From Leucoraja erinacea (taxonomy: Eukaryota), in contig NW_026576109.1 of assembly GCF_028641065.1 (NCBI RefSeq), positions 124,001-188,000 of the forward strand: 64,000 bases of DNA. The letters are read 5' to 3'. The notes beneath the pieces were generated by a model, which did not search any database, was not told the DNA's origin, and was given only the letters and a program-made list of their open reading frames with translations. Positions 2,617 to 55,546 of this stretch are shown piece by piece (within the stretch, counting starts at the first letter, position 1; each line of letters begins with the position of its first letter). Made by a program: the position numbers and the translations under genes.

Positions 2617-5036
2617 CTACTTGAACCAGCCAGTAATGATATTGAATGGATATTTGAGAGCATCCTTTAACAGTTCCCTGAATTTAGACTGTGTCCCAAC
2701 ATAAATACACGTGTTGGTACAGGAACTAAGAATCTCTAACATGTATCCGCTTTCTTGAAGAATAAATCTTGGGTCATTGGAATTAGAACCAGTTGGATAG
2801 ACGTTGCTTGTAATCTGCACAGATAGGAAATTTACCACATAGGTCGACCTCAACAAAATAAAACTCCAGGAGATGGCGAGAAGTAAAATAATGGATCTTC
2901 TCCTGCTCTCCATCTCGGGGTCACTCTGTTTCTCTCCGTTGCTCTGCGCCCGGAGTCTCCGGCGGGCCCGACTGGCCGCTAGAATGTGTCTGATCGTCAG
3001 AACATTAAGCAGCAAAATGAGTAGGAATGGGATACATGGATTTAACATATGGTGCAGCCATTCATACACCCTCCATGCAAGTGATGTATAGAAGATTGGT
3101 CTAATGCTGCAGAACCAGGGTACATTGTCAACGACATAGATGGGCTCATATTCAAAATATGCAGGGATGTTTCGCAAGGACGCCAGCACGCAGATGGATG
3201 CTATAATCACAGCCGCAGTTTTCTCGGTGCAGTATCTCACCTTCAATTTCTGGCTGCCAATAGCTAAAAAGCGATCGAACGTGAACGCGACCGTTAACCA
3301 CACCGATGTGTCTTTTGAAATCCAGCTGAAGGTAATAACGAGACTGCAGGCAGGAGTGGTGGACAAGAAACTAAGTGGGAAATAAATAGCCCGTAGCCGA
3401 CTTAATATCACAGCAGTTATAATGACCAGGAGATCCGCCACTGCCATGAACACCAGGTAACGAGTTATGCATTTCGAGAGGCCGCACTTTCCTTGGGACA
3501 AAATCACAATCGTCACTAAATTCGCTGCAAAACAAAATAATAAATTCGTTCATTGATAATCAGACCGTTAAATCCAATTGATTGACAGGATAAATTAGTG
3601 CAGTATTTCGACGATTCAGCTAACCACCAAATATATTGTGCTTTGGCTCATGCCACGCCCGCGTACGTTTATGCCCCTGTCCCACTTAGGCAACCTGAAC
3701 GGAAACCTCTGGAGACTGCGACCCACCCAAGGTTCCCGGAGATTGCAAGTGGTTGCCGGAGGGTGCAGGAAGTGGAAGCAGGTAGGGAGACTGACAAAAA
3801 AACCTCCGGGAACCGCACGGAAACCTTGGGTGGGGCGCAAAGTCTCCAGAGGTTTCCGTTCAGGTTTCCTAAGTGGGACAGGGACATTATGGAATGGAAT
3901 ACAAAAGACCAGCTTCCCAAACATAATGACAATTTGTTGAAAAAATAAGAAATTATAAATCCATTGGCACATCATAACCATATACCCATATATAACCATA
4001 TAACAATTACAGTACGGAAACAGGCCATCTCGGCTCTTCTAGTCCGCGCCGAACCCTTGCTCTCACCTAGTCCCATCTATCTACCTGCACTCAGACCATA
4101 AATCTCCATTCCTTTCCCATCCATATACCTTTCCAATTTATTTTTAAATTATAAAATCGAACCTGCCGGCCTCCACCACTTCCACTCTCTGAGTAAAGAA
4201 GTTCACCCTCATGTTACCCCTAAACTTCTGTCCCTTAATTCTCAAGTCATGTCCTCTTGTTTGAATCTTCCCTACTCTCAATTGAAAAAAGCTTATCCAC
4301 GTCAACTCTGTCTATCCCTTTCATAATTTTACAGACCTCTATCAAGTCCCCCCTTCACCATCTGCGCTCATACTGAAAGCAAATAACGATGTCAATGGGA
4401 GAAGAGATCATTTAGAATATAGCGTGTGAAATTTAGATACAATGATGCATTTCCATGCCAAACTAACTAGAGCGCTTCGTAATTTGGTAGATGAAATTGA
4501 TTCAATGCCCGCATTGAGACCAGTGTTGAGTCAAATGGTGTTCGAAGTGTAATTCCAATAAATGATATGATCGGAGGTGTTACATCAGCCACCAAATTCT
4601 GTAAATGACACCGGAATTTTTGTCGGGCGAGTTTCGGAGAGGAGAGACAATTTAAAATAATTCAATTCTGCATCCAATTATTCCTTTCTGTCTCTGATCA
4701 GAAATACAGATGCTCCCATTCAACAGCATTCAAAAGACGGTACCAACAAGCATTTTGTTCTTGCAGGAATTGTAAGAGAATATTTTTTTTTCGAACGACC
4801 TCCTTTGCATCAGACAACTTGATTGAATTCGTCATTCCGTACGAGATCGCAAGGAACAGATAGCGACGGAGAACCCGGCGTGCATTCGGTGCACATTGAA
4901 GTGGCTGAATGGCAGATTGAAAATGCTTTTTAAATGAAAGTCTACGTCCATATGTTTTGTTCTTACCTGGAACTCCGAAAGCTGCGAGAAAAGAATAATA
5001 AATGGCAAAGACCGGCCCATTCCCAGGTGCGTGCAT
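2617..5036 (-). CDS. GPR139/GPR142-like class A GPCR, copy 1 (exon 1 5036-4967, exon 2 3524-2617; ~325 aa)
   Basis: Exon 1 MHAPGNGPVFAIYYSFLAAFGVP + GTAAGA; exon 2 after TTTTGCAG continues ANLVTIVILSQGKCGLSKC...MAVADLL...FTFDRF...SSCTNTCIY. Seven hydrophobic segments, no stops. TATAAATA at 5101-5094. Confidence 0.9.
3672..3886. mobile_element. PIF/Harbinger-like MITE in the GPCR copy 1 intron
   Basis: Long TIR TGCCCCTGTCCCACTTAGG...CCTAAGTGGGACAGGGACA, with TTA on both sides. Confidence 0.8.
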
Positions 5037-5794
5037 TGTTTCCGTGAGCACGATTTAGCTGGCAAGAAAATTTTGCATCAAACTTATCAGAACTATTTAT
5101 ACCGCAGTGCAATCTCTGGAGCGACAATTAATTGCATCATCATAATTGCCAGGCAGAATGCTCCGAATAAACAAGGGAAAGTATGTTGTTCTTTCTTGTA
5201 ATGATTTATGACATGATATTGTTTGAGCAATGTGGCTTAATTGAGAAACGAGCTACTGTGGCTGTTTGAAATGAAACATATCACGTGAATTGGGTGAAAG
5301 GGGCTTCTGACTAGTAAATAATACGGTTTCTTCTAATAGCGTTAGGAATATTCTGTAGCCATTTGTGTGTCGACCCCAAATGAAGACATCGTCATCCTGG
5401 AGTGTGTCGCGAAGTGAATGGGCTCTTCTTTCTGCGTCTCACCCCCCCCCCCCCCTCCCGCGCTCCAATGGGTCTCCTATGTTTGTCTGTTTTTCCTCTC
5501 TCCCCTCTCTGAGCCGCGCCTGATGCCGTGGACCTGCTGCCGATACTCCCCTCTACCGCCTGATCATTCCCCGCCACCTGACTGCTTCTCCATAATCCGT
5601 TCACTGGTGGTCACCCATCTATTTTCTGCCTCTGTGGCATAGTATCATATTCAAAATCATACTCATAATAGTACTTTATTAGCCAAGAAAGGTTTGCAGC
5701 ATACCATCAAATCATGCCGTCGTAGCAGGAAAGAGCAACAATACACCAATATAAATGTTAAGTGTAGTTAGTGTAATGTTAAGTTAAATGTTAA

Positions 5795-6460
5795 GGCAGT
5801 GATGAAAGCGAATGGTATGTTAGCTTTCATAGCAAAAGGATTTGAGTATAGGAGCAGGGAGGTTCTACTGCAGTTGTACAGGGTCTTGGTGAGACCACAC
5901 CTGGAGTATTGCGTACAGTTTTGGTCTACAAATCTGAGGAAGGACATTATTGCCATAGTGGGAGTGCAGAGAAGGTTCACCAGACTGATTCCTGGGATGT
6001 CAGGACTGTCTTATGAAGAAAGACTGAATAGACTTGGTTTATACTCTCTAGAATTTAGGAGATTGAGAGGGGATCTTATAGAAACTTGCAAAATTCTTAA
6101 GGGGTTGGACAGGCTAGATGCAGGAAGATTGCTCCCGATGTTGGGGAAGTCCAGGACAAGGGGTCACAGCTTAAGGATAAGGGGGACATCCTTTAAAACC
6201 GAGATGAGAAGAACGTTTTTCACACAGAGAGTGGTGAATCTCTGGAACTCTCTGCCGCAGAGGGTAGTCGAGGCCAGTTCATTGGCTATATTTAAGAGGG
6301 AGTTAGATGTGGCCCTTGTGGCTAAGGGGATCAGAGAGTATGGAGAGAAGGCAGGTACGGGATACTGAGTTGGATGATCAGCCATGATCATATTCAATGG
6401 CGGCGCAGGCTCGAAGGGCCGAATGGCCTACTCCTGCACCTAATTTCTATGCTTCTATGT
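5795..6460 (+). mobile_element. CR1 3' fragment (similar short 3' ends at ~1-140, 2135-2597, 3985-4370, 7215-8400, 9968-10358, 11190-11520, 15931-16210, 22263-22855, 23708-24240, 29005-29385, 30025-30520, 31890-32295, 44220-44380, 61765-62040)
   Basis: Repeated GLSYEERL..LGLYSLEFRRLRGDLIE...TRGHSL homology and a shared 3' UTR/tail. Confidence 0.92.
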
Positions 6461-8766
6461 TAAACATGGCAATCGCCCACAGCGACTCCCCCACATTCCT
6501 CACTGTGATGGAAGGCAAACATGTTCACTCTGCTTGCCTTCTTTGTTCTTCCGCGGTCGGGGCTCTGAAACCTTCCGTTGTCGGGGAGATCTTGGCTCCC
6601 GCAGCCGGCGGTCGATCCCTCCCGGTCGGGGCGATCATGCGCCCGCATCTGGATGCTCCCAGCTGCCTCGCGCCTGGCGATCGGCCCCCAGGTCGGGGCT
6701 GGTCGAACCATCTGCGACTTGGAGCTTCCCGACATCAGTATCTGCCGAGACTGCGAGCTCCTCGATGTTGAAATCCACAGGCCACGGTTGGAGCGTCGAT
6801 CCCAGGCAAGGTAAATCCACTGCCCCGCGGTGGGGCTGAAAGTCAGATTCGAGCAAGGCCGCCAACTCCAAGATCTTGGGCCGCAGAGCGATCGGAGATA
6901 CGATCCGGAAAACAATCGCATCTCCGGCAAGGTAAGAGTTTGAAAAAAGTTTCCCCCGACCCCGTTCTCCACCTCCCACATAAAACAAACCAGAGAACAT
7001 TAACACGTATTTTAAAAACATACTAAAAATAACAAAAATGACGAAACGACAGCAATACTATTGGCGATGCTGCCGTCGCTGACGGCCCCACTCGTCATTG
7101 ATCGATGATGTAATTCGCGGAGATGGAAAGACTAAACTGATAGAAACAGAATTCCTGCATTATGAATTAGAAATATATTGGAGTATCATCAACCCTGTTA
7201 ATTTACTTTCTGTCGTTCTTTAAAAGCTTCCCAATACTCTGGCTTCCCACTAATCTTTGCAATGTTATACGCCTTCTCTTTTAGTTTTATAGTATCCTGG
7301 CTGCCCTTGTCAGCCACGGCCACGCTTTCTCCACCTAGAATCGTCCATCCTTTTTGGAACGAAAAGGTTCTGCATCTTCCGAATTATTCCCAGAAATTCC
7401 TGCCATTAAAGTTCCACTGTCTTCCCTGCTCTGTTCCCTTCCCAGACAACTTTCACCAGATAATCCTTCGTGCCTCGGTACCCTTTGCTCATCTGCAATA
7501 CAGACACATCCGATGTCATCTTCTCCCTCTTAAATTGCAGATTAAAACTTATCATGGTCTGGTCGCTACTTCCTAGAGGTTCATTTACCTAGAGTTCCCT
7601 TTATCAAATCCGGATCGCTACTCAACACTATATGCAGAATCATCTTTACCCTGGTATGCTCTGCTAAAAGCTTTTCTACGAATCCATCTCGTAGGCACTC
7701 AACAAATCCCCTTCCTTGTGGTCATGTACCATCCTGATTTACCCAGTTTACCTGCATAATGAAATCCCACATGACCTCCGTAGCATCGTCCTTCTTACAT
7801 GCCAATTGGTTATATTTAAGAGGGAGTTAGATGTGAGCCTTGTTGCTAAATGAGGTCAGGGGGTATGGAGAGAAGGCTGGTACAGGATACTGAGTTGGAT
7901 GATCAGCCATGATCATATTGAATGGCGGTGCAGGCTCGAAGGGCCGAATGGCCTACTCTTGCACCTATTTGCACCTAACTTGTATCCTATATCCTGACTA
8001 CTGTTTGGTTGCCTGTAACGAACTTCCATTATCGCATTTTTACCCGTAATATCTCTCAGCTCTATCCACAATTACTCTACACTCTATGATCTCATCACCC
8101 TCCCTACGGACTGAATTTTATACCGTGCCAACCGTGCTACCCCAACCCCTTCCCCCACCTGTCTTAAAATGTTTAACTTTGAACATTCAATTCCCAGCTC
8201 CGATCGTCGCTCAGGTAGCAATCCAGAGATTATTACCTACTTGGGTCTGCTTTTGATCTTCATATTCATTCAGCAGAATCTATCTTCTTGTTCTACCTAC
8301 GTCATTGGACCACGACAACGGGATCTTTCCCCTCGCCTGCACGTTGCTCAGCAGCGCAGACGAGATGTCCTGAATCCAGCCACCAGGCAGACAACAGCGG
8401 TTTTGTTCTATTTTGCCTCTTCCTTGTCTGGTTAGAAACTCCCCCCCCCCCCCTTCTGTTAATAGATCATTGCTACTCTTCTTAGTCTTTATAAAATCGC
8501 TGTTGTATTCATATTCCTTTTGGGGATTTTTTTGTGCCTTGATCGTTCTCTGTCATCGTTTATATCCTTTATCTCATAGTTATATCATACCTGCTGCCGG
8601 AGCGTGCCTCAATCCTTTCTCCAACATAACCAGATGTGTTTTTATTGCAAACCCCTATAGAAAACCGTCCTGTTGAAAATTGATTAAATTACTGTCGCCT
8701 TGTAACATGTTCCAGCACATTCCCAGGTACAGCCAGAGGTGGGACCCGAAGTTTTCGAATGCTTAC

Positions 8767-8832
8767 CGATTGTGACAGTCACTGCGGACCCTGTACCATC
8801 CTTATAGTAAGTTCTCCACTGAAGTATGGACC
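8767..8832 (-). CDS. NAR-TCR cassette A: J segment (SILQWRTYYKDGTGSAVTVTI)
   Basis: NAR-type DGxG(T/S)xVTV motif rather than FGxG/WGxG; phase-1 GTAAGC donor at 8766-8761; 5' 23-RSS. Confidence 0.9.
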
Positions 8833-8871
8833 CACAGTGACCTGACGCTGGGGATCGTCAGTACAAAAAAC
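8833..8871 (-). other. 23-bp-spacer RSS of cassette A J
   Basis: Reads on the + strand as CACAGTG + 23 bp + ACAAAAAAC, abutting the J coding end. Confidence 0.93.
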
Positions 8872-9184
8872 TCCCTCGTCTATATCTGCCCGACAGTCAT
8901 GACCAGAGGCTGTGAAATCACCTCCAGTGGTTTCGGAACGAAAACCAAATGTTACAAGTTCCAACGTCGCAGTATGATCAATCTGTTCAGTTTAAGAGAC
9001 GAACCAACAAGAAATGCAACCCCTGTACCTGGATCGGTGGTCGTTTCGGAAATCGATGGAGAAAATGGCAAGTAAAAATAGCAATAACTTCCCGATTGCA
9101 ATGGAGTTCAGGTCGACTCCAGCGTCACGAAGAATTGTAACATTGTGTTGCCGCTTCCCGTGAATAGATGTTTTAATTGCCCGA

Positions 9185-9212: not shown

Positions 9213-9522
9213 ATCCCCATAACCCTTTGTCGGCGCCATCTGTACTCAGCTTGACAGTAATAGGTGGCGTCGTCCCCAGCTGCCAGTTCTCGAATTTCCA
9301 GCGTGAAAGTCATTTCTGCTTCATTAACCGACGTACGGAATCGGGGCCCGTTGGTGATCCGTTCCCGCCCAGGTTCGGACTGGGTTTGTTTGAAGAAACT
9401 TCCAGTTTGAAATGCATATTCGCCCCTTGAACCAGGTTGGAAACGGCATTTGATGGCGAGAGACTGGCACTCCTCCCTCGTCGCCGCTGAGGGGCGCTGC
9501 GTCAGTGTCTGACTAAAGGAGA
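9213..9522 (-). CDS. NAR-TCR cassette A: IgNAR-like V exon, apparently already joined to a D segment
   Basis: Acceptor ...CCTGCAG, then an open frame SFSQTLTQRPSAATREECQSLAIKCRFQPGSRGEYAFQTGSFFKQTQSEPGRERITNGPRFRTSVNEAEMTFTLEIRELAAGDDATYYCQAEYRWRRQRVMG. Canonical Cys pair, DxATYYC, extra FR1 Cys, no FR2 Trp, short CDR2 region. Close paralogue of 16273-16566. Confidence 0.9.
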
Positions 9523-9650
9523 CTGCAGGTGAAGCACAGGCAGAGGTATATGTGAATCAAAAACGAACCACGTGTCGAGGATTAAACAAACTGTTTGAAA
9601 ATCGGGACGGATGCGATTATTTTTATATTAAAACTGCAAACTGCACTCAC

Positions 9651-9693
9651 GATGTAAGCAGAGCCACAGGATAAAAACCGGTGGGATTCGCAT
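9651..9693 (-). CDS. NAR-TCR cassette A: leader exon (MRIPPVFILWLCLH, phase 1)
   Basis: ATG at 9693; 43-bp hydrophobic signal-peptide exon followed by a GTGAGT donor (9650-9645). Same length and phase as the cassette B leader; splices in frame to the V exon at 9522. Confidence 0.88.
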
Positions 9694-24574: not shown

Positions 24575-27500
24575 AACCGAGGTTTGGCTCAAAAAGCTGG
24601 AGTAACTCAGCGTGACAGGCAACTTCGATGGAGAGAAAGAATGGGTGACGTTTCGGCTCGATACCCTTCTTCAGACTGGTTAGGGATAAGGGGAACGAGA
24701 GATATAGCCGGTGATGTGGAGAGATAAAAAACAATGAATTAAATATATGCAAAAAAACAGTTACAATTATATAGGAAATAGGCCATTGTTAGATGTTTGT
24801 AGCGAGACAATGAAAAGCAAATGCGGCTTGGGTGGGGGGGGTGGTGATGAGAGGGAATGCCGTGGCTACCTGACGGGAGAGAAATCAATAGTCATATCAC
24901 GGGGCTGTGAGCTGCCCAAGCGAACTATGAGATGCTGTTCCTCCAATTTGCGTGTAGCCTCACTATGACAATGGAGGAGACCGAGGACAGAAAGGTCTGT
25001 GTAGGAATGGGAAGGAGAATTAAAGTGTCAAGCAACGTTTACGTTCAGGCAGGCTAAGCGAATTGGTTCCGCAAAACCATCGTCCAGAGTGCGTTTGTTC
25101 TCGCCGATGTATAAGAACATCGGATACCGTAAATGAGGTGGCAAGAACTGCAAGTAAACCTCTGCCTAACCTGAAGGGACTTTCGCGGTCCTTGGACAGA
25201 GTCGAGGGAGGAGGTACAGCGATAGGTGTTGCATCTTCTGCGCTTGGAGGGGACGTTACCTGAGGAGGGAGGTGGGGGGTGGGGGGGGGGGGGGGGGGGG
25301 TGGGAATGGATGAGTTATCGAGGGAGTTATGGAGGGTACCGTCTCTGAGGAGCGCGGAAAGGTATAGTGAAGGTGGCCGATTAGGAAAAGAGGAGATGCA
25401 ACGAAACCTGGGTGTCATGGCACACCAGTCATTGAAAGTAGGCATGCAGTGAAGAAAGCGAATGACATGTTAGCATTCATAGCAATATAATTTGAGTATA
25501 GGAGCATGGAGGTTTTACGGTAAATGTACAGGGTCTTGGTGAGACCACACGTGGTGTATTGCGTACAGTTTTAGTCTCCTAATCTGAGGTAGGACATTCT
25601 TGCCATAGAGGGAGTACAGAGAATGTTCACCAGACTGATTTCCAGGATGTCAGGACTTTCATATGAAGAAAGACTGGATAGACTCGGCTTGTACTCGCTA
25701 GAATTTAGAAGATTGAGGGGGGATCTTATAGAAACTTACAAAATTCTTAATAGGTCGGACAGGCTAGATGCAGGAAGATTGTTCCCGATGTTGGGGAAGT
25801 CCAGAAAAAATGGTCACAGTTTAAGGATAAAGGGGAAATCTTTTAGGACTGAGATGAGAAAAACATTTTTTACACTGGGAGTGGTGAATCTCTGGAATTC
25901 TCTGCCACAGAATATAGTTGAGGCCAGTTCAATGGCTACATTTAAGAGGGAGTTAGATGTGGCCCTTGTGGCTAAAGGGATCAGGGGGTATGGAGAGAAG
26001 TCAAGTACAGGATACTGTGTTGGATGATCAGCCATGATCATATTAAATGGCGGTGCAGGCTCGAAGGGCCGAATGGCCTACTCTTGCACCTATTTACCAT
26101 ATTTCTATGTTTCTATGAAGGAAAAATGGGGCTAGTGGTAGGAGCCCGTTGGCGGTGGCGAAATTTCGGATGACATTTCGATATGCCACGGCTGGTGAGG
26201 TGGGATATAAGGACGAGGCGGTCTCTACTGCGAATAGCCTAAGGAGAGCAAGGGCGGAGCTGTGGGGTAACGAGGAGGCACGAATGATGGCCCCATACAC
26301 GAGAAGAATGATGATATCTCGGACGTCCTGGTATGGAACACTTCATCTTGGGCACAGATGCGGCGTAGACGGAGGAATTAGGAGTAGGGGTGGAGTTATT
26401 AAGTTACAAAGCATGCCGGTTCTCGGTTTTGCCCCCCCCCCTTCAGCAGACCCCCCACTCCATATTTGTCCCCACACCCCCTATTGTCCTTTGTTCTTCC
26501 CCCACTTCCCGCACGGCGCCTCCCCCCCCCCCCCCCCACCTCCAGCCCCACTCTCGGTCTTGCAATAACCCCCCCCCCCTCCTCTCAGCGCCCGCCTCCC
26601 CCCCCCCCCCCCCCCCTTCTCGCCGGGTGCTCCATTGTTCGTCCCCCTCCTTCCTCACGATGGTAATAGACGTCAGTCAATAGTGTATTTCCTGTGATGG
26701 CGCATGTGAGATCAAGAAAGGAGAGGGAGGTGGCGGAGATAGTCCAAGTAGATTTGAGTGCAGCATGAAAGTTGGTGGTGAAGTTAATGAAGTCCATGAG
26801 CTCTGCATGGGTGTCAGAGGTAGCACCGATGCGGCCATTTGTGTAACGAAGAAAGAGTTAGGGGATAAGGCCAGGATGCGCCTGGACCAGGGATTGGCCA
26901 ACGTACACAGAGGCAGGCGCTGCTGGGACCCACGTAAGTGCGCATAGCGACACTTCGGACTTGGAGGATGTGGGAGTATTCAAAGGAGAAGTTGATGAAG
27001 ATGAGGACCGGCTCCACTACCCAGAGGGGTGTTTGTAACATAGAAACATAGAAAATAGGTGCAGGAAGAGGCCATTCGGCCCTTGGAGCCTGCACCGCAA
27101 TTCATTGTGATCTTGGCTGATCATCCCGTATCAATAACCCGTGCTTGCCTTCTCCCCATATCCATTGACTCCACTAGCCGCTTGAGCTCTATCTAACTAT
27201 CTCTTAAATCCATCCAGTGATTTGGCCTCCACTGCCCTCTTTGGCAGGGAATTCCATCAATTCACAACTCTCTAGGTGAAAAGGTTTTTGCTCATCTCAG
27301 TCTTAAATGACATCCCCTTTATTCTAAGACTGTGGCCCCTGGTTCTGGACTCGCCCAACATTGGGAACATTTTTCCTGCATCAGGCTAGAGGGGAATCTG
27401 ATGGTTCTGCGGTCGAGGGAGAAACTGAGGGTTTTAAGGCATTCCTGGTGGGAAGTGGACGTGTAGAGTGACTGAACGTCCATCATAACGTGGGGGCTCG

Positions 27501-30825: not shown

Positions 30826-31127
30826 GTCTGGTTCATTCAGATTCCGTCAACCAAGAGCAGGGTCCGCTCGCACATGCAGAGGGTCAAAGCGCCACTTTCA
30901 CATGTACCTATACTGAGGATAGTTATTACTTATACTGGTATCGGCAGTATCCTGGCGGACAGCCCGAGTTTGCGGTCCGGCGAGACATTACCGGTGGCTC
31001 TGAGCTGAAGGCTGACTTCGCTCAAAATCGTTTTTCGGACTCAGTCCAGCGGTCGGAGAAAAAATATCGATTGACAATCTCGGCGCTTCGTCTGACTGAT
31101 ACGGCAGTTTATTACTGCGCAGCGGAT
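30826..31127 (+). CDS. Conventional TCR alpha/delta V exon
   Basis: TTCCAG acceptor; LVHSDSVNQEQGPLAHAEGQSATFTCTYTEDSYYLYWYRQYPGGQPEFAVRRDITGGSELKADFAQNRFSDSVQRSEKKYRLTISALRLTDTAVYYCAAD; intact frame. Confidence 0.93.
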
Positions 31128-31166
31128 CACAGTGATGAGAATGGTGTACATACCCGTACAATAACT
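31128..31166 (+). other. 23-bp-spacer RSS of TCR V
   Basis: CACAGTG + 23 bp + ACAATAACT. Confidence 0.93.
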
Positions 31167-35133: not shown

Positions 35134-36822
35134 ATGGGTCGGATGCACATGTCGGTTGAATATTATTATTACCCAATCCTGGCATCAATTGGAGTACCCG
35201 GTATGTCTCTTGACGGCTGTATTTGGGATAACCGTGACGCCAATTGATTGGGAAGCGGTAATGTTGAAGATTAAGTTAAAATAATGTGACAACATGTACT
35301 GGATACTCGGCTGCATTCAGGGAATGGGGTTTGGGGGAAATAACCAGAAGATAATATAGTTATTGTATGGTTTCATTGCATTTCACCGTTTGGCGTTTAG
35401 AATGATCCTTGCAATATTGTTAAGAGAAGTAACAGCCAAAGTAGGTTGAGCGACAAAGGCTGTATGTGCTTAAATCTCGGGCGATTGTATTTCCCGCCTC
35501 TATCTTTGTTTCCATATGTTCTCCCTTTTTATGGCTTCTATTAATTTTCATTGTGGGCTTTCTTCAACGATCACCGCATCGCGTGCAGGTATTCTCCACT
35601 GTACACCGCCCCCTGCAAATGTTGCAAACCAATAAGCAAATGCTGATCCGAAATGTGCACCCGTTTAACACTAACTTCAGTCGTATTGTTCACTCTACGC
35701 TTCCGTTCAAACTGTTTCTCAGTAGATTAATTCACTGTTAGGTGGAATGTTTGTTCGTGAGCGCAGTATCAGGGATTACATTAAAACCAAAGGAAATCTC
35801 CGTCCATTTCACAATTTAGGAAAGCGAGCAAAATAACAATATATGACCATCCATCACTCAACTCGAAGTTTTGTCCCCATAATCACCATTGCTTCTTTCT
35901 TGCTCCCCTAGTGAATCTACTGGCCATTGTGATCCTGTCCCGAGGAAAGTGCGGTCTCTCCAAATGCATCACCTGTTACCTGGTGGCTATGGCGACGGCG
36001 GACCTCTCCGTGATTGTCTGCGAAGTGATTTTAAATCAAATTGCCGATCTTTATTGGGTGAACTCAATCCTGTTCATTGCTCCTGTGTGCAAGTGTATCC
36101 TCTTCCTGTCCGCCGCGGCCGTAGACTGTTCCGTTTGGTTCACGGTCGCTTTCACATTTGATAGGTTCGTGGCCATCTCCAAACAGAATCTGAGATCCAG
36201 ATACTGCACCGAGAGAAGCGCGGCGGTGATTATTATGACCCTGTGTACCTTCTTCTGCTTACAGAACGCTCCCTGGCCTTTCGCTTACAATCCTCTCTAC
36301 CTGTATAATGGTTTACTGTGGGGCTGCGGAATCCGACCGGAGTTCTATGTCCTGCCAGCATGGATCGCATTTTCTTGGACCGAGGCGCTGTTGACCCCAG
36401 TTATTCCATTCTGTTTCATCTTGTTGTTTAATGCGCACATGGCGAGATGTATTGTAATGGCCAATCGGGTCCGCAGGAGGCTCCGCGATCTCACTCGTGG
36501 AGACCCGGAGACGGAAAGCCGTAAACGGTCCATAATATTACTCTTTGCCATCTCCGGCAGCTTTCTACTGCTCTGGGTCACAACTGTATTTCATTTTGTG
36601 TACTCTCGATGTATCAACGTAATGTGGGTGAGAGCTTTCACTAACTCATTAGAAACAATCGAAAAAACGGGAGTCCTGCTGCAGCTGTTGAACACATGTA
36701 CAAACACACTGATTTACACCGTCACCCAGGGGAAGTTCAGAGAGCAGTTCCTTCACGCACTTCAATGCCCCGTCGCGCTAATTAGAAAGTTCGTTAAAGT
36801 TCCCAAAACCGGTTCAAAATGA
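35134..36822 (+). CDS. GPR139/GPR142-like GPCR, copy 2 (exon 1 35134-35200, exon 2 35912-36822; ~325 aa)
   Basis: Exon 1 MGRMHMSVEYYYYPILASIGVP + GTATGT; exon 2 VNLLAIVILSRGKCGLSKC...DRF...NTCTNTLIY, intact. TATAAAT at 35053. Confidence 0.9.
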
Positions 36823-38650: not shown

Positions 38651-38654
38651 CCGA

Positions 38655-39518: not shown

Positions 39519-39562
<44 letters not shown>

Positions 39563-39828: not shown

Positions 39829-39841
39829 TCTTCGTTCCCAG

Positions 39842-40754
39842 TGAACCTGGTGGCGATTGCTGTTCTGTACCGGGGAAGGTGCGGTCTTTCCGAATGCATT
39901 ACTCGTTACCTGATCGCCATGGCGACGGCGGACCTCGCGGTGATTGTCGGCGATGTCATATTACATCGGATAGCCGATCTATATTGGTGGGACACGTTCT
40001 TGCTCCACATTACGGCGTGCAGGTTCATGTCCTATCTCGCTTCTGCGGCCGTAGACTGTTCCGTTTGGTTCACCGTGGCTTTCACCTTTGACCGCTTTTT
40101 GGCCATTTCCACGCAAAACCTAAAGAACAGTTGCTGCACCAAGAAAACCGCGATGGTGGTTATCGTGACGCTAAGTGCGTTCTTCAGTTTACAAAATGCT
40201 CCCTGGCCTTTCGCGTATGGTTATTTTCACATGGATAATGAGGGTATAAAGGGTGGTTGCCGAATGGGGATACAATTTTATACTTTGACCACGTGGGTTG
40301 CATTTCTTGGACTGAACAGCTGTTAACACCTGTGATTCCGTTCGGTTTGATTGTGCTGTTGAATGCGCTCACGATCAGACGTATTTTAGTGGCTAGTCGG
40401 ATCTGCAGGAAGCTCCGCGATCTGGATGGTGGCGACGCCGAGATCGGAAACCGCAGACGCTCCGTTATTTCACTCCTCGCGATATCCAGCAGCTTTATGC
40501 AGCTCTGGGGCACAACTGTAGCACATTTCGTTTTCTATCGAAGTGCGAGCGTATATTGGTGCAGGGGATTGATGAATCCATTTGCAATATTTGATCGGAC
40601 TGGGGTTGTCCTGCAGCTGTTGAACACCTGCACAAACACGCTGATTTACACCGTGACCCAGAGGAGGTTCAGAGAGCAGCTGCTCCACGCATTCAAATAC
40701 CCCTTCACCCTAAATGTACGTTTAATAAAATTGAGAAAACATGGTGTAAAATAA
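39842..40754 (+). pseudogene. GPR139-like GPCR, copy 3 (exon 2 only, frameshifted)
   Basis: Full exon-2 homology split over two ORFs by a 1-nt loss near 40303-40306 (GCATTTCTTGG vs GCATTTTCTTGG in copy 2). A truncated CR1 abuts the acceptor. No exon 1 found between 36822 and 39840. Confidence 0.82.
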
Positions 40755-44690: not shown

Positions 44691-45710
44691 GCTCTTCGCG
44701 GGAAGTGATATGCGCATTAAATGTGTTTTGCGTGGAATGTCATAATTCTGGGATCTTTCTGACATTCATCACCCACTCTGCGGCCGTGAAGCCGATGCGA
44801 TGGGTGAATATGATAACATGGACGGTATCAGCAACATTGCTCAAAATGAATATGAGTTCTGCGCGGTTTCATCATGAACAGCGGGTGTGGGGGAGGGGGG
44901 TGGGAGATGAATGGAGAGGCAGTGCATGGGGTGTTTTATGGGCTCGAGTGCTTCTCGGAATCAATGTACCATTTAACAATGCACTTTTTTTCATGCAGTT
45001 AGTTTAGTTTTTCGCCACGTGAAAGCAGGTACAATGAAACGCTTTTGTTGCGTGCTGACCAGTCGGCATAAAGGCAAGACGTGATTACGACCGCGCTATT
45101 TACAGTGTACAGATAGATGGTAAGGGAATTATGTTTAGTGCAATGTAAAGCCAGCAAAGACTGATCATGGATAGTCCGATTTCAGGTATACATTAGGATA
45201 CGAGCGGTTTAAAACGGCACGACTGTTTTTTCAAATATTCGTTGAATATTCTGCTTAACAAGAAGCTTTCGACAATAAATGGGTTAGATGTCAGTTGTCG
45301 TTGCGACATATACGAAGCGCTGGAGTTACGCGATTATGCACTTGAGAGGCCCAACTCTCAGCATTCAGCAAGAGGCGTTGATGTCTGATTTCTGCTAAAT
45401 CGACACATTCTTCATATTAATCAAATATTTAAACGTTTTTAAGAGATTAAATCCGAATATTTATATGTTTCGAGTGTGGAGCTGAACATCTTCCGTTGGA
45501 ACGTTACTAGAGAGTATTCTGAGGTATGCGATATACATTAATTTCGATGGGCAAGGTCAGATAAGGGATAAACAGCAGGGTGTTGTACGTGGGAGGTCGT
45601 GTCTCACAAGTCTGATTGAGTTTTTTGAAGATTGACAAAGAATGATGAAAAGGTCGTAGTTGTTGTAAAAAATGGACTTCAGCAATAACTCGACAAGTCT
45701 GCGCTTGGGA

Positions 45711-47718
45711 GTACCAAAGCGAAGGATGATGCGTACAAATTAGCCAGAAAAAGCAGCATACCGGAGGACTGGGAGAAATTCAAAGATAAGCAGAGGAGGA
45801 CAAAGGGCTTAATTAGGAAAGGGAAAATAGATTATGAAAGAAAACTGGCAGGGAACATAAAAACTGACTGCAAACGTTTTTATAGGTATGTGAAAAGAAA
45901 GAGATTAGTTAAAACAAATGTAGGTCCCTTGCGGTCAGAACAAGGTGAGTTGATCATGGGGAACAAGGATATGGCGGACCAATTGAATAACTACTTTGGT
46001 TCCATCTTCACTAATGAAGACATAAATAATTTGCCGGAAATAGCAGGGGACCGCGGGTCAAAGGAGTTGGAGGAATTGAGTGAAATCCAGGTTAGCCGGG
46101 AAGTGGTGTTGGGTAAATTGAACGGATTAAAGGCCGATAAACCCCCAGGGCCAGATATGCTGCATCCCAAAGTACTTAAGGAAGTAGCTCCAGAAATAGT
46201 GGATGCATTAGTAATAATCTTTCAAAACTCTTTAGATTCTGGAGTAGTTCCTGAAGATTGGCGGGTAGCAAACGTAACCCCACTTTTTAAGAAGGGAGGA
46301 AAAGAGAAAATTGGGAATTACAGACCAGTTAGTCTAACATCGGTAGTGGGGAAACTGCTAGAGTCAGTTATTAAAGATGGGATAGCAGCACATTTGGAAA
46401 GTGGTGAAATCATTGGACAAAGTCAGCATGGATTTACGAAAGGTAAATCATGTCTGACGAATCTCATAGAATTTTTCGAGGATGTAACTAGTAGCGTGGA
46501 TAGGGGAAACCAGTGGATGTGGTGTATCTGGACTTCCAGAAGGGGTTTCAACAAGGTCCCACGAAAGAGATTAGTATACAAACTTAAAGCACAAGGCATT
46601 GGGGGTTCAGTATTGATGTGGATAGAGAACTGGCTGGCAAACAGGAAGCAAAGAGTAGGAGTAAACGGGTCCTTTTCACAATGGCAGGCAGTGACTAGTG
46701 GGGTACCGCAAGGCTCGGTGCTGGGACCCCAGCTATTTACAATATATATTAATGATCTGGATGAGGGAATTGAAGGCAATATCTCCAAGTTTGCGGATGA
46801 CAATAAGCTGGGGGGCAGTGTTAGCTGTGAGGAGGATGCTAGGAGACTGCAAGGTGACTTGAATAGGCTGGGTGAGTGGGCAAATGTTTGGCAGATGCAG
46901 TATAATGTGGATAAATGTGAGGTTATCCATTTTGGTGGCAAAAACGGGAAAGCAGACCATTATCTAAATGGTGGCCGATTGGGAAAGGGGGAGATGCAGC
47001 GAGACCTGGATGTCATGGTACACCAGTCATTGAAGGTAGGCATGCAGGTGCAGCAGGCAGTAAAGAAAGCGAATGGTATGTTAGCTTTCATTGCAAAAGG
47101 ATTTGAGTATAGGAGCAGGGAGGTTCTACTGCAGTTGTACATGGTCTTGGTGAGACCACACCTGAGTATTGCGTACAGTTTTGGTCTCCAAATCCGAGGA
47201 AGGGCATTATTGCCATAGAGGGAGTGCAGAGACGGTTCACCAGACTGATTCCTGGGATGCCAGGACTGTCTTATGAAGAAAGACTGGATAGACTTGGTTT
47301 ATACTCTCTAGAATTTAGGAAATTGAGAGGGGATCTTATAGAAACTTACAAAATTCTTAAGGGGTTGGACAGGCTAGATGCAGGAAGATTGTTCCCGTTG
47401 TTAGGGAAGTCCAGGACAAGGGGTCACAGCTTAAGGATAAGGGGGAAATCCTTTAAACCGAGATGAGAAGAACGTTTTGCACACAGAGAGTGGTGAATCT
47501 CTGGAACTCTCTGCCACAGAGGGTAGTTGAGGCCAGGTCATTGGCTATATTTAAAAGGGAGTTAGATGTGGCCCTTGTGGCTAAGGGGATCAGGGGGCAT
47601 GGAGAGAAGGCAGGTACTGGATACTGAGTTGGATGATCAGCCATGATCATATTGAATGGCGGTGCAGGCTCGAAGGGCAGAATGGCCTACTCCTGCACCT
47701 AATTTCTATGTTTCTATG
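45711..47718 (+). mobile_element. CR1 LINE, 5'-truncated, near-intact RT (ORF 45890-47218)
   Basis: [35 protein letters not shown] motifs; 3' UTR ending in a TTTCTATG repeat tail. Confidence 0.95.
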
Positions 47719-48374: not shown

Positions 48375-49670
48375 CATAAGTCAGTCCCGCCATCCCGGGA
48401 GTTAAGATGGTGAACATAAGCTGCACTCCCTCAATAGCAAGAATGCCCTTCCTCAAATGCGGAGACCAAAACTGCGGTCTCACCAGGATCGCTTTGCTCC
48501 TTTACACACACCCTCTCGCTATGAAAGCCAACATGCCATTAGCTTTCTTCATTGCCTGTTATACCTGCATGCTTACTTTCAGTGATTAATGTACAAGGAC
48601 ATCACTGTCTCGTTAACACTCCCCTTTTCCAAATCTGACACCATTCAGATAATAATCTGCCTTCTTGTTGTTGCCACCAATGTGCATAAACTCACATTTA
48701 TCCACATTATACGGCATCTTACTTGCATCTGCCCACGCACCGAACCAAGTCACCAGGCAGCATCATCGTATTCTCCTCGCAGCTCACACTGCCACCCAGC
48801 TTTGTGTCATCCGCAAACATGGAAATGTTGCATTTAATTCCTTCGTCTAAATCGTTAATATATATTTAAATAACTGGCGTCCCACGACTTAGCCTTACGG
48901 CACCCGACGGGTCACTGCATGCCATTCTGAAAAGGCCCGTTATTTCCTGCTCCTTCCTTCCTGCCTGCCAACCAGTTATTTATGCGTGTCAATAGCCTAC
49001 CTCCAGTACAATGTGCTGTAATTTTGCACACTAATCTCCTGTGGTGGACCTTGTCAAAGCTTTTTTGAAAGTCCAGTTACACCACACCCACTGGTTCTCC
49101 CTTAACCATGCTACTTGTTACATCCTCAAAAATCCCGAAGATTTGTCAAGCATGATTTCCCTTTCATAAATCAATGATAACTCTGACCTATCCTGTCACT
49201 GCTAATCCAAATGCGGTCCTGTTACATCTTTAATAAGCGGCTCAACCACCCTCCCTTCTACCAATGTCAACCAAACTGGTCTATAGTTCCCAGTTTTCTC
49301 TCTTCCTCCTTTATTCAAAAAAAAGTGGGATTACATTAGCTGCCCTCCAGTCCGCAGGAACTAATTCAGAGTCAAAAGAACTGATCACCAATGCAAGCAC
49401 GATTTCTCGGCCCACCTCCGTGGGTACTCTGGGATGCAGACCATCAGGTCCTGGGGATATATCTGTCTTCAGTCCCAACATTTTACCCAACACCATTTCA
49501 TGACTAATGTGAATTTCCTTCAGTTCCTCAGACATGATAGATTCTCGGTCCTCCAATATTTATGGGAGATTGTTTATGCCTTCCTTGGTAAGTACTTGTT
49601 AAACTGGTCTGCAATTCCTTGTTTCCCATTATAAATTCACCTGTAATTCTGACTGTAAGGGACCTACATG
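48375..49670 (-). mobile_element. Old CR1 RT fragment
   Basis: SPGPDGLHPRV and WRAANVIPLF motifs in broken frames. Confidence 0.85.
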
Positions 49671-49980
49671 TATTGAATCAGCTGACATGATGTATCAACT
49701 AATATTAATATTTCAAGCCATGAATTTGCACTTGATACATCGTTAGAGAGCCATAGAGTGATACCTACGGTAACAGCGCTTTGGGCCCTTGTTCATGCCG
49801 ACCAAGATGCCCCTAGTGTCATTTCCCCGCGTCTGTATCATACGCCTTCCGTATCCATATACCTGTCCACATGTGTTTTCAATAAAGTACCTGTCATAGT
49901 ACCTGCCACAACTACTCCCTCTGGCTGCACGTTCCATACACCGGTCACTCCCTGTGCGAAAAAGTGTGTATGCAGTTTAA

Positions 49981-50250
49981 AGGACCTGTCCCACGAGCAT
50001 GCGGCTCCAAGCGGCAAGCGCGACCTAACGTGGTCGCTTGAGCCGTACGACCTCGCATGGCCGGTCCCACTTCGATCGCCGGAGGCGCATGGAGTTGTGC
50101 GGAGCTGGTCCCGACATCGCGCGGGGCTCCGAAAAACTGACCGTGTTCAAAAATTCCGCGCGGCTGCCGGTCCCGCAGCCGCCTCGACGCCGTGTCACTG
50201 ACTCGACCTCCTCGCGGCTCACGCTTCTGGTTTGGTCGCGCTTGCCGGAT
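49981..50250. mobile_element. Truncated Harbinger-like MITE
   Basis: Begins TAA|AGGACCTGTCCCAC; internal inverted pair CGGCAAGCGCGACC / GGTCGCGCTTGCCG; right terminus missing. Confidence 0.5.
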
Positions 50251-52114
50251 GACACCAGAACTTTATGCCAAGATCTAAGAAAAACACATCACCTTCCGCC
50301 GGGGCAAGGCGCAAATTTCTGCACATAACATCCGAGTCTACATCTCTACTAAATCTCTCTTCCTCGTCATTTGGAACACAATTGGGCATTTCGACGACGG
50401 TCTTGATTATATTGTCTCTCGTGAAAACGTTCAAAACTTGAAATGTCAAATCACAACATCGTTCGGTCCAGAACAATAAAATATCCTCACCTATACAGTC
50501 TCTCTCAGGATTGAACCACCACACCAGTCCAGGCAAAAACTTTGTCATGAATACGCTGCCACCCCCAGTTTAATTGTATCATCGCTAACATATTGCGATG
50601 TGAACAACATTGCATGTGCGGTCTCGTAAACGTCCCAGACCAGGTGGTTAAACTCCACTTATATCCAACTGCGTGCGACTCCTGCCGTGAAATAAGCCCA
50701 CACCTCCAGCTGGCTGAGGGGAAAAAAATCTTACCATCCACATTCAAATTTACTCGCGTTAGTTGCAAGCAAATAGTTCATGAACAAGATGGAAAAAAGG
50801 CCCTGTTTCTGTGCTGTGTAACATGCAATTACCACTTACAGTGAGAGTTGGTTCAATATACCCGCCCCTCCCGTGAGGGAGAGTTGGCGCTGCGTGCCCT
50901 TTAAATATTTACTTATTTTAGACTCCTGCCTCTTGTAGAGACCTATACCTTAGGAACAAAATATAATACCTCAATTGATCACCTTGTCATATTTTAATTC
51001 TCCATAATTCCTCCTGTTTTGTTCGCTGCAGAGAGAAAAAGCTTCTGCATTATCCAGTCCATCTCACAATTCGCTCTGTCCAATATTAGTACCATTCGTG
51101 TGAGGAGAGTTGCATACTCCCTAGTTTAAATGGATCCTTAATGAATTATTTCGAAAAATAAGATCCCTGTTCCTGTGCTGTACTGCTCTGTGAAGATTTT
51201 TTTTCCTTTGAATTGCTTAGTTTGAGTGCAGCAAACATGACACTTTTTCCTTAGGTCAAGACTTTCTTCAAAATGATCTATCCCCAAACATGTACCGCCG
51301 GTCAGAGTCTCCTTAACGGATTCAATCGGTTCTATCATCTTGCTCGTCAACATTCGTGATATCTCCAACGGATCAATGCATTGAGAAGATTTCGCCCTAA
51401 TATCTGGAGTAACATCAAAAGCTGTTCACCTCTGTGTTTTATGAATTAACACATGTCTTTAAACATAACCTGTTGATCAAGAATATTTCTAGCCGCTGTT
51501 TATTTCCAGTCAGTTGTCACATTACACATTATATTCGCCTATCCTTTACTTCATGCGGTGCCAACAGTTGAAAGACATTAATGCTGCTGTTGTATCTGAA
51601 TGTATACGATGTCTTCTGGAAGGTTCCCTGTGATTTACATCATTTAGACCCTGCCCAAAAATAATAATCATTCCTTTTGAAAGATCAAATTATTAATGGG
51701 TGCATGTTAAATGAATGGAACGGTGTCTGGAAAATGCATCACAAATGCTACAAATGAAATACTGTATTGCATCGCAGCATGTGTAGACAAATACTACATG
51801 AAATGAATTTTGCTGCATCTGTGTGCCACGCGTTCAAATTTAAAAATAGAATGTGCAGTCGTATTTTACAGTTCCTTTGTTCTGTTGGTGCTCAGCTGGT
51901 GCCTGAGTAGGGAGCGGTCGCATAATGAGTTTGATCGCTTTGCATCACATGGGAGCAAACTATTTGTTCATCGGTCCAAAATAAATGTCCGCGGGGAGGT
52001 GAACGCACGCAGTACTTCACTTTTTTCCAGGAACATAAATATAGCGCTGTTTGACTTCTCACTTTGACTTCCCTAAGTTTTGCACTGCATAACTGCGGAT
52101 GGCTTGAAGGAATA

Positions 52115-53167
52115 ATGAGTTGGAAGTGGCACTTGGAAGTTGAATATTACTATTATCCAATTCTGGCAGCAATCGGAGTACCCGGTAGGTGAAGGGAAAG
52201 CAGTAAGAGGGACTGAGACGTGGGATGATATGTTGATAAAAACAATGTTAAAGGTAAAGTTTAAATATTGTGCGAAACACGGGAATGCTAGAGTGCATTC
52301 TTCAGGTCAGGGCGGTATTAACTAAAAAATGTTTGTTTAAGAAATTACTGCAGTTGCTGGAGAAATCGTATCTAGACAAAAATGCTGGAGAATTAGACAG
52401 CGGGTGAAGCGGCATCTATGAAGCGAAGGAATAGGTGACGTTTCGGGTCGAGACTGATCAGTCTGAAGAAGGGTCTCAACCCGAAACGTCACCTATTCCT
52501 TCGTTAATCTACTTGATCGTTGGTCGTTCATTGGATCTGGCACAGGTTAATTCTCTTCAGATTTAGGTACATTGTTGTCATGTCTCTCCGGGAGCTGCAA
52601 AAAGCTTTGGTTTGCAAGAAATCCAAATTAGATCAAATAATATTAAATATCAGTACAAACTATTCAATCTCAGTAACAGGTAGTGTAAGAGGGGACATTG
52701 GAGTGCAGAGCGTAGTTCACGTTTGGGAGCGCTCTGCAGCGTATCACATCCACAAAGCCCAATGTCCGCAAGAGGATAGAGGTTTAACGGCAATGCCCTG
52801 GCATATGGAAGAGCGGCTCAGAAGCCTGACAACAGAGGGTAAGAAGTTGTTCTGGAGTCTGGTGTTGCAAGCTTTAAGCCTTCTGTATGTTCTGCCCGAC
52901 GGGTGCAGGGACGGGTGATGGAATGAGCGGGGTGAGACGTGTCGCCGTTTCCAAGGGATTTTGAAGTGCAAACGCAGTCAACAGTGCGGGGTCTATTTCG
53001 CGATAACTACCCGGCATCTTCCAGAACTCGCTGCAATTTATTGTTTGCAGGGTAGGCGGTGGGCGGCGCGACTCACGTCGCAGTGGCTTCTGCAGTCCGT
53101 CTGTCTTTTTGTTATTTTTTTGTCCTGTTTTAATGTAATTTTTTTTGATGGGGGTATGTGTGTGTGT

Positions 53168-53210
<43 letters not shown>

Positions 53211-55546
53211 GGGGGGGGGGGGGGGGGGGGGTACGGGGGGGCGGGTTTTAAAATATTTCCACTGCACGGACAACCCGACCTCTTCCCTGTCGTTGGGGCT
53301 GCAACGTGGAGCGGCCTCCAGCAGGAACGACCTGGGGCTCCAGTCGCGGAGCTGCGGAGCTACTCACCATCATGCGGCTGGCCGAGTCCGGAGCGGGTGG
53401 AGCTGTGGTGGCGCGCTGCTGCGACCCGATCCCCGGAGATTAGGAGGCTTACCGCAGGTCTGACAGACAGTAATATCGGGAGCCCGTGGGTCCCTGCTGG
53501 GAGACCGCTTTTCGGGGCTTCCGCAACGGCGACTTCTCCTGCCCGAGTCGCGGGATCGAGGAGTTCCTGGAGCGGGGCCTTACATCATCGCCCGGTGTGG
53601 CTTCAACGGCTGCGGGACTTTGCTAGCGCCCGCCGCAGGCTCCAACAACAAGTCCCGGAGCGCGGCCTTGCATCACCCGGCGCGGCGTTAATGGCCGCGG
53701 GCCAATTGCCATCGCCCGCCGGGGGCTTTGCCATCGGGAGGGGAATGGGGAGTGCAGGGGAGAGATAAGCGTTTTTGCCTTCCATCACAGCGAGGAGGAG
53801 ATGCGCTGTGATGGATGTCTGTGTAAATTGTGTTGTGTCTTGGGTTTTGTTTTTCTTGTGTGTATGACTGCAGAAACAACATTTCATTTGAGCCTCTATG
53901 AGGTTCAAGCGACAAATAAATTGTATTGTGTATTGTGTATTGTGTACTGAGATGTGCCCACAGCAAGCGGTAATCTACCCAACAGTATGTTTTCTACGCT
54001 AATCTGTAGCGGCATGTTTGAGTCATCAGATGCAGGTCAAAGTCATTATCTGGAAACTTGCGGGAGCAGTCACATCCAAATTTGGCCGCGGGGCGCGAGT
54101 GCACAGGGTGAAAAGTCGGGGACGGGGAAGACATCTTTATGCGGCATCGTTGTAGAGAATTATTGTGGAAGGGGTGTTATCACTAATTCCTACTGATTAG
54201 GGCATGTTCATTAGAACGTCAAGTATGCACTCGCAAGCTGGTGCACTGATCACTAGGTTCGGGAGTTTATCAACGGTTTGGATGGGAATAGTGTTGAAGG
54301 CAAGTTCTCCAGCGAAGACATGGGCTTCTAACTTTCGATTCCTTGTTGCCTGGCTGTTCCGGGGAATTGTTTAGGTCCAGGAGGATGGCGTGTGATGTGG
54401 ACATGTTGCTGCAATATGCAGTCTGCGGTGCATCACGGATGGCTGGGAGACAGCTCACGCTGCCTGCGTATACCGCTGTTAGCGAATCCGCACAGCTCCT
54501 TAGCACGCACCGAGGTTTGCATGTGGGCTGGTTGTTTTAGAAAAAATATGCAAAGTGTAACCCAAGTTTGTCCCCGCCTCCAAATGAGCATCGCGTTTCC
54601 CTTACATGTAACGACAGTTTGCTCTTTTCCAGTGAACCTGTTGGCGATTGTGATCCTGTCGCGCAGAAATTGTGGTATCTCCAAATGCACCACTCGGTAC
54701 CTGGTGGCCATGGCGACAGTGGACCTCTCGGTGATTGTCTGCGAAGTGATATTACATCGGATTGCCGACCTTTCCTGGATGTATTCTTTCCTCTTCCACA
54801 ATACTGTGTGCAGGTCCATTATGTTCCTCGCTCCCGCGACTGTTGCCTGTTCTGTTTGGCTCACGGTCGCTTTCACATTTGATCGCTTTGTGGCCATTTC
54901 CACTCAGAATCTGAGAACCAGATACTGCACTGAGAGAACCGCGCTGGTGGTTATAGTGACCCTAACTGCGTTCTTCTGTTTGCAGAACGTACCTTGGCCG
55001 TTTGCGTACAATTATTATTTCAGGGATCAGCAGGGTACACTGTGGGGTTGCCTAATACGACATCAGTTTTATAGCCTATCCTCGTGGATAGCATTTTCCT
55101 GGACTAAACAGCTGCTAGTCCCAGTCATTCCATTTTGTTTGATTATGCTGATGAACGTGCTCACAGTCAGACGCATTTTAATGGCCAGTCGTGTCCGCAG
55201 AAAACTCCGCGATCTCAGTAGTGAGGACCCCGAAATCGCAAATCGCAGACGGTCCGTAATTTTACTCCTTGCAATCTCCAGCAGTTTTATGCTGCTCTGG
55301 GGCACAAATGTGGTATATTTCGTTTTATATCGAATTACGAATGCGTTTATGTCCAGGGGGTTGAAAAACCCATATGCAACATTTGAACAAACTGGAATTC
55401 TGCTACAACTGTTGAACACCTGCACAAACACGCTCATTTACACCGTGACCCAGAGGAGGTTCAGAGAGCATCTGCTCCAGGTACTCATGTACCCCTTCAC
55501 CCTAACTGTAAGCTTAATAAAATCGAGAACACCTGGTGTAAATTAA
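52115..55546 (+). CDS. GPR139/GPR142-like GPCR, copy 4 (exon 1 52115-52184, exon 2 54633-55546; ~327 aa)
   Basis: Exon 1 MSWKWHLEVEYYYYPILAAIGVP + GTAGGT; exon 2 after CTTTTCCAG, VNLLAIVILSRRNCGISKC...DRF...NTCTNTLIY, intact. The first ~80 aa of the 384-aa ORF in the track are intronic. Confidence 0.9.
53050..53945 (+). mobile_element. Non-autonomous GC-rich retroposon with a LINE-like 3' tail (related pieces ~6465-7095 -, ~32884-33090 -, ~55965-56275 -)
   Basis: Shared block TGCCTTCCATCACAG...TGTGTATG.CTG...AA..A.ATTTC followed by a short tandem tail (TTGTA / TCTTGA). Confidence 0.6.

Follow-up and report, generated by a model that had tools for sequence, protein, structure and literature searches.

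Orphan class-A receptor genes among V segments and NAR-TCR cassettes in a probable TCR alpha/delta V region of the skate Leucoraja erinacea

Why should genes for G-protein-coupled receptors (GPCRs) alternate with rearranging T-cell receptor (TCR) V segments, and what becomes of them when these segments rearrange? The question is raised by a stretch of 64,000 nucleotides (G000:C928:124001-188000; hereafter the window) of the 2.19-Gb genome of the skate Leucoraja erinacea, part of a 208-kb unplaced contig, C928. Five two-exon class-A GPCR loci were located in it (three intact, one frameshifted, one a fragment), among two NAR-TCR cassettes and a Valpha/delta exon. As judged from contig overlaps, the window most likely lies within a true TCR alpha/delta V region, with Ddelta, Jdelta, Cdelta, Jalpha and Calpha about 270 kb to its left on the minus strand. 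We consider it probable that the interleaved receptors, two-exon orphans distantly related to GPR139/GPR142, are passengers with a role outside mature T cells, in a birth-and-death region that they have in common with the antigen-receptor genes.

We propose that a birth-and-death GPCR array and an antigen-receptor complex occupy one region and have in part been duplicated jointly. Rearrangement would delete or invert GPCRs as a by-product, leading to clonal changes in copy number like those of the olfactory receptors (ORs) in TRAV and of the trypsinogens in TRB, whose deletion in T cells follows from their position. Selection would maintain the receptor genes for a task in cells of another type; they probably form a diversified repertoire for sensing small molecules or peptides, ligand and tissue both being putative.

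Receptor genes and V segments of the window

A first-pass annotation had described GPCRs, NAR-TCR cassettes and a V gene as interleaved. The order is present in the sequence of both haplotypes, namely GPCR1, cassette A, cassette B, the GPCR2 fragment, the Valpha/delta exon, GPCR3, GPCR4 and GPCR5; only three of the five GPCR loci are intact, however, and cassette A, which reads from the minus strand, is probably dead. The features are given below (RSS, recombination signal sequence; TM, transmembrane segment; CDR1, complementarity-determining region 1; aa, amino acids).

2617..3524, minus strand: GPCR1 (clade A) exon 2, intact; full protein 325 aa; Pfam 7tm_1 E 2.8e-17
4967..5036, minus strand: GPCR1 exon 1, N-terminus and start of TM1, with G-V-P end and phase-1 GT donor
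8766..8871, minus strand: cassette A J (YYKDGTGSAVTVT) and 23-bp-spacer RSS, heptamer at 8833
9230..9693, minus strand: cassette A leader (at 9693) and V exon, here without V RSS, D or supporting Vdelta
15820..16604, plus strand: cassette B leader (from 15820), V exon and 22/23-RSS (at 16567), with a-b loop Cys and without the WYR Trp
16941..16990, plus strand: cassette B D segment (16948-16962) flanked by heptamers, 3' 12-RSS at 16963
17319..17416, plus strand: cassette B 23-RSS and J (YYEDGAGTTVAVTA), J from 17358, splice donor
21042..21387, plus strand: cassette B supporting TCR-delta V (21042-21348) with CDR1 Cys, 23-RSS at 21349; predicted inversional
24279..24584, minus strand: GPCR2, pseudogene, a family member's 3' fragment (TM6-TM7)
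30826..31166, plus strand: TCR Valpha/delta exon (30834-31127), 23-RSS at 31128; predicted inversional
35134..36822, plus strand: GPCR3 (clade B), exon 1 35134-35200, exon 2 ~35913-36822; intact, 325 aa
39832..40754, plus strand: GPCR4, resembling clade B (64-69% to GPCR5); pseudogene, exon 2 frameshifted near 40300
52115..55546, plus strand: GPCR5 (clade B), exon 1 52115-52184, exon 2 ~54634-55546; intact, 327 aa

In the intact genes GPCR1, GPCR3 and GPCR5 a short exon 1 ending in G-V-P is followed by a phase-1 intron. Pfam 7tm_1 matched above cut-off in four of six scanned GPCR pieces of the window; class A membership was assigned from E-values of 2.8e-17, 5.9e-17 and 1.4e-16, an FDRF motif and the aligned cysteines of both TM3 and extracellular loop 2. 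The GPCR2 fragment and the 3' half of GPCR4 had no Pfam match, yet were recognised as family members by tblastn. An exon 1 of its own was looked for at GPCR4 and not found. Olfactory receptors have a single coding exon and motifs such as MAYDRYVAIC; with two coding exons and matches to 7tm_1/Srw only, identity of the locus GPCRs as ORs was rejected.

V-set was found in all four scanned V exons, above cut-off in three. According to the cited sections of PMC1845163, a NAR-TCR has a leadered V with a Cys in the a-b loop and no canonical WYR Trp, RSS-flanked D and J segments of its own and, downstream in splice phase, a leaderless supporting Vdelta with a CDR1 Cys; its expressed transcript is doubly rearranged. 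Both cassettes have the leader (at 9693 and 15820), the Cys of 'ECQS', and 'FFK' replacing WYR. RSS-flanked D and J segments are complete in cassette B; cassette A retains the J RSS only. The supporting V of cassette B ('GHCSY', phase-1 junction) has no leader within 350 bp upstream, and cassette A is without such a V in this haplotype. Since cassette A also lacks any recognisable RSS 3' of its V, in both haplotypes, and any D RSS, it is probably dead or non-rearranging. For the V exon at 30834, no convincing leader candidate was found.

The second haplotype is represented by contig C924, which is collinear with C928:95-208 kb at 93-99% identity over multi-kb blocks and has the GPCRs and V genes in identical order. 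A scaffold misjoin, against which the first-pass annotation had cautioned, was rejected because C924 repeats the interleaving. C924 retains the supporting Vdelta of cassette A in broken form (split over two frames) and lacks that of cassette B. The haplotypes carry complementary deletions (window 4000-8700 and 18600-22000 versus C924:39084-39372 and 51735-53222), and NAR-TCR content is therefore polymorphic.

Location of D, J and C segments and consequences of rearrangement

TCR-delta constants were identified by a profile-free search and a cluster look-up (homologue searches with longer TCR chains gave 2 and 1 matches). A search with C1-set failed to single out Cdelta, whereas a J-segment pattern succeeded: of its 29 matches, 27 make up the minus-strand Jalpha array of C875 and C121, against 0 for the reversed pattern used as control. 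Below the Jalpha array of C875/C121 lies a Calpha-like TM exon. Contig C977 carries Cdelta, with a C exon 99% identical to an annotated TCR-delta constant, six Jdelta-like and two Ddelta segments, all on the minus strand. The first GPCR stands 48 kb from Ddelta on this same contig, and GPCRs alternate with V genes from there onward.

Linkage of the V region to D, J and C is direct for the GPCRs of C977; for the window it is inferred through the overlaps C977-C1316-C928. C977 and C1316 overlap +/+ at 92-97%, with one 20-kb block at 95.8%. C1316 aligns +/+ to the start of C928 over 5,656 bp at 95.9%, 75% of it non-repeat, versus at most 91% in non-repeat blocks between paralogous units inside C928. 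The tiled path so obtained, on which the window starts ~270 kb right of Ddelta, continues from C928 to C924, C989 (reversed) and C1211, and bears out the initial proposal that the GPCRs are situated inside a rearranging TCR alpha/delta V region.

On the condition that D, J and C lie to the right of the window, the same proposal expected the GPCRs at 35-55 kb to be excised by joining of the V segments with RSS at 21349 or 31128. No one contig spans the distance from the window to D/J/C, and the join crosses a tandem array, which leaves room for such a geometry. We nevertheless regard it as unlikely, as all non-repeat C1316-C928 alignments are +/+ bar one 465-bp piece, the best of them at allelic identity, and the contig overlaps place D/J/C on the left, on the minus strand. 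Rightward, 85 kb of C924 as well as C989 and C1211 held V genes, GPCRs and one more NAR-TCR cassette, and no Ddelta/Jdelta cluster was found in them.

Opposite V orientations join by deletion and by inversion, respectively, according to RSS geometry. With D/J/C placed on the left, the plus-strand V segments at 21349 and 31128 are predicted to be inversional: their joining would flip GPCR1 and, instead of excising GPCR3 and GPCR5, would not affect them. The latter two would be deleted by distal minus-strand V genes. The tiled path (to C1211:60 kb) has 26 GPCR loci over ~420 kb, 21 of them intact (exon 2 without interruption, exon 1 recognised) and 5 broken. Full non-NAR V exons with RSS number 34 on this path (23 minus, 11 plus). 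Distal to GPCR5, 13 of 19 V genes are on the minus strand, the deleting orientation, and C1211:60-107 kb contributes 24 further minus V matches. Joins of V to D/J would delete (minus V) or invert (plus V) the intervening GPCRs, from 1 to 21 intact genes per allele. Given V(D)J mechanics and the mapped V orientations, T-cell clones would indeed differ in GPCR content by V usage, as had been anticipated.

A rearranged TCR-delta protein from a transcript assembly (P0276) combines a J and the C exons of C977 with a V that shares 88% identity with the distal V at C924:155185. In this skate or a related one, members of that distal V family are therefore joined to this Cdelta.

Three further observations were made along the path. 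Between Ddelta and the first GPCR lies an inverted second TCR-delta-like unit, present in both haplotypes (C977:89198-97096, plus strand; also C875:222884-227900), whose V has a weak 23-RSS and whose J has a 12-RSS. It also includes a C exon, together with a TM exon 51% identical to that of Cdelta, and could be a D-less V-J-C delta minicluster. The cassette at C989:36244-39638 is a divergent NAR-TCR, whose J RSS scores with a 12-bp spacer versus 23 bp in the other cassettes. C924:128-198 kb and C989:82-150 kb align partly directly and partly inverted, reflecting an inversion polymorphism or a misassembly; an inversion in the V region would make some V genes inversional on one haplotype and deletional on the other.

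The receptor family: size, descent and linkage

Two genome searches yielded 1,432 and 1,404 first-look candidate loci of the family, counts that include haplotype duplicates and fragments; 128 of the ~1,400 candidates were scored per search. They are distributed over C3, C9, C14, C15, C22, C24, C33, C34, C35 and unplaced contigs, with a dense array at C15:44.03-45.14 Mb. This array is shared with an IgNAR cluster, with C2H2 zinc-finger genes and with two TCR-like V genes that carry a 23-RSS. The IgNAR cluster (C15:44798318-44813170) has a V, an RSS-flanked D region and at least 5 C exons; the zinc-finger cluster is at 44.93-44.98 Mb. A genome-wide count had been suggested as a check on the linkage: ~2% of the candidates are in the TCR alpha/delta locus and ~98% elsewhere. 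Two clades are enriched in the locus. With 26 GPCRs in ~420 kb (~1 per 16 kb), the density in the locus is far above that of ~1,400 candidates in 2.19 Gb, and for this reason we do not attribute the interleaving to chance.

Homologues (2,212) carry the database label 'probable GPR139' and are closest in skates and rays. GPR139 is single-copy in mammals and is activated by L-Trp/L-Phe. The locus GPCRs resemble GPR139/GPR142 as class-A seven-TM proteins with a D-R motif in TM3, and human GPR139 is their best solved-structure match (PDB 7vug, 9m42; E 9e-8, 35 bits over 204 residues). They differ in having DRF in TM3, SSCTN/LNTCTN instead of NPxxY in TM7, and ~1,400 candidate members. Status as GPR139 orthologues was rejected on the 35-bit match and the ~1,400 candidate paralogues. 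On sequence grounds, the skate family is a paralogous, expanded lineage and not orthologous to GPR139/GPR142.

Phylogenies were calculated as quick trees, the first from 63 own rows (high-scoring segment pairs of at least 240 aa) and 30 of 120 listed homologues, the second after dropping 10 allelic duplicates and all cross-species rows. The locus GPCRs formed clades A and B, each with 100% SH-aLRT, plus one outlier. Clade A (GPCR1 type) extends to sharks and rays; from the skate it also includes one unplaced gene and the two C15 genes that neighbour the TCR-like V genes. In clade B (GPCR3/5 type), 13 of 20 rows are locus genes; of the others, two are orphons in linkage with NAR-V pseudogenes, and five are unplaced copies, with no V in the 10-30 kb read around these five. 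The median dN/dS of 0.17 for clade A (66 pairs) and 0.38 for clade B (45 pairs) indicates that the intact locus GPCRs are maintained by purifying selection.

Joint copying is apparent for part of the locus, in tandem blocks that duplicated a clade-B GPCR along with NAR-TCR V/J and a supporting Vdelta. The block C928:1.4-16.8 kb is repeated at 35.8-53.9 kb with 83-93% identity; it runs from one GPCR through a supporting-V region and a NAR-V to the following GPCR. On C3 and C1440, a GPCR3-like gene is accompanied by a NAR-TCR V pseudogene in orphon copies. Dense V arrays free of GPCRs were found in the parts read of C1211 (68 of 108 kb) and C1519 (30 of 75 kb). Because repeated blocks and orphons carry the GPCR along with the NAR-TCR V, the suggested co-expansion of the two families is partially supported: it is borne out for clade B, not for the whole locus, with its GPCR-free V arrays and ~98% of the family elsewhere. 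Pseudogene orphons of NAR-TCR V or supporting Vdelta were seen at C3:12.665-12.670 Mb, C3:13.062-13.070 Mb, and on C1440, C1701 and C96; those on C3, C1440 and C96 adjoin GPCR copies or fragments.

Evidence from other species is at the level of chromosomes, while interleaving is known from the skate locus. In the stingray Hypanus, a TCR-delta constant and a clade-A GPCR share one chromosome of 48,887,500 bp; synteny in other chondrichthyans, suggested earlier as a check, is seen there as this link. In two other skates, Amblyraja and Rhinoraja, a single chromosome (of 59.9 and 49.5 Mb, respectively) carries orthologues both of locus GPCRs and of C15-array GPCRs, an indication that C15 is where the unplaced locus belongs. 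In a catshark, a clade-A gene is found on a chromosome of 133,841,611 bp, and the coordinates of the elasmobranch antigen-receptor complex (AgRC) in the part of table S1 of PMC12227049 used here reach 133.54 Mb, which is suggestive only of a location on the AgRC chromosome. RefSeq gives several isoforms for the stingray gene and for the catshark gene, usually a sign of transcript support. A look-up of RNA data sets containing GPCR3 listed none. In raw reads of four runs of unspecified tissue there was no real cover on the coding exons of GPCR3, and none on the V at 30834, i.e. no T-cell control; in contigs of four further runs GPCR1 was uncovered except for one short low-depth piece in X18. 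These read and transcript-contig results were used neither for nor against expression in T cells.

Passengers, immune receptors or coincidence

Passenger status is favoured because the family is genome-wide, its C15 array also holds IgNAR and zinc-finger genes, and dense V arrays do without GPCRs in the parts read. Several points weigh against this reading. Orientation depends on a single inter-haplotype overlap, C1316-C928, which falls within a tandem array. Over part of their length, moreover, an inversion or a paralogous block sets C924 apart from C989. The quick trees are without bootstrap, and their cross-species rows are best matches to GPCR1. Both clades are strongly enriched in the locus, where 21 of 26 loci are intact, and the linkage is old, with shark and ray members in clade A and the stingray member on the TCR-delta chromosome; the linkage itself could be selected.

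The latter points would suit an immune-receptor module, in which TCR alpha/delta regulation drives expression of the two clades in thymus or lymphocytes, V choice sets the receptors of a clone, and the linkage is selected. It would also account for the concentration of both clades in the locus and the linked C15 array, the orthologue linkage in two other skates, the purifying selection, and the copying of clade B together with NAR-TCR cassettes. The spread of ~1,400 candidates over the genome speaks against it, as do the occurrence of GPCRs in both orientations and their lack of any fixed V pairing except in the NAR-TCR block. In mammals, moreover, Valpha-Jalpha is rearranged on both alleles; such biallelic rearrangement would strip the proximal GPCRs from most alpha-beta T cells, which a gene needed there would not tolerate. 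All considered, an immune module seems improbable to us.

Pure coincidence, i.e. two unrelated expansions in a repeat-rich region without joint copying, agrees with the lack of a repeated GPCR+V unit for clade A and with the dense V arrays that grew without GPCRs. It is contradicted for clade B by the blocks and orphons in which its GPCRs accompany a NAR-TCR V, and it is very unlikely as an account of the locus, even if it may hold for clade A. Equally unlikely is a somatically variable GPCR repertoire of T cells, with two clades residing in TCR alpha/delta since the shark-ray split and expressed under its control, where each join, by removing or flipping 1-21 intact genes, would couple antigen specificity to a chemosensory or homing phenotype.

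The passenger reading has parallels in mammals. In the cited portion of PMC4574546, ORs are found among TRAV genes (human OR10G2 and OR4E2, mouse Olfr1507-1509), likewise non-immune GPCRs interspersed with TCR alpha/delta V genes and lost on rearrangement. They are two to three single-exon genes at the far 5' end, whereas the skate locus has ~21 intact two-exon non-OR genes (Pfam 7tm_1, weak GPR139 similarity) over ~420 kb, starting 48 kb from Ddelta, at ~10x the scale and in part co-copied with V cassettes. The trypsinogens of TRB (8 human, 20 mouse and 5 bovine genes in the excerpts of PMC2685407) are likewise a non-TCR multigene family inside a rearranging TCR locus; there, locus and protein class differ and the genes stand in blocks, whereas the skate GPCRs, lying in either orientation, take turns with V genes one at a time. 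A further related system is the AgRC, where TCR alpha/delta V, NAR-TCR and IgNAR/IgH are linked in one region with mixed V orientation, as described in the cited parts of PMC12227049; the skate C15 GPCR array, with its IgNAR cluster and two TCR-like V genes, is similar. A GPCR array is not described in the main text and two supplements of that paper by term look-up, nor mentioned in PMC11372145, PMC11979771 and PMC12208981 by the same means, and PMC6504862 makes no mention of sharks under the terms looked up. A full-text search, with the locus literature incompletely covered, found no published account of the array or of its linkage to TCR genes.

In cartilaginous fishes, the ancestral-type region of TCR alpha/delta and IgNAR would thus have as its groundwork a GPCR array that is very large, mislabelled and unstudied. 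This array may help to explain the fragmented assembly of the locus, its mixed V orientation and the turnover of NAR-TCR through block duplications, orphons and complementary deletions. The skate locus also offers an old, testable parallel to the OR-TRAV neighbourhood of mammals. If T cells express the embedded GPCRs, V(D)J recombination would also edit a repertoire of signalling receptors; if they do not, the locus would still be a good entry to the function of ~1,400 orphan receptors of sharks and rays.

The spacers between the genes of the window are ordinary, being filled by SINE-like repeats and by CR1/LINE reverse-transcriptase remnants at 45689-47466 and in many shorter pieces.

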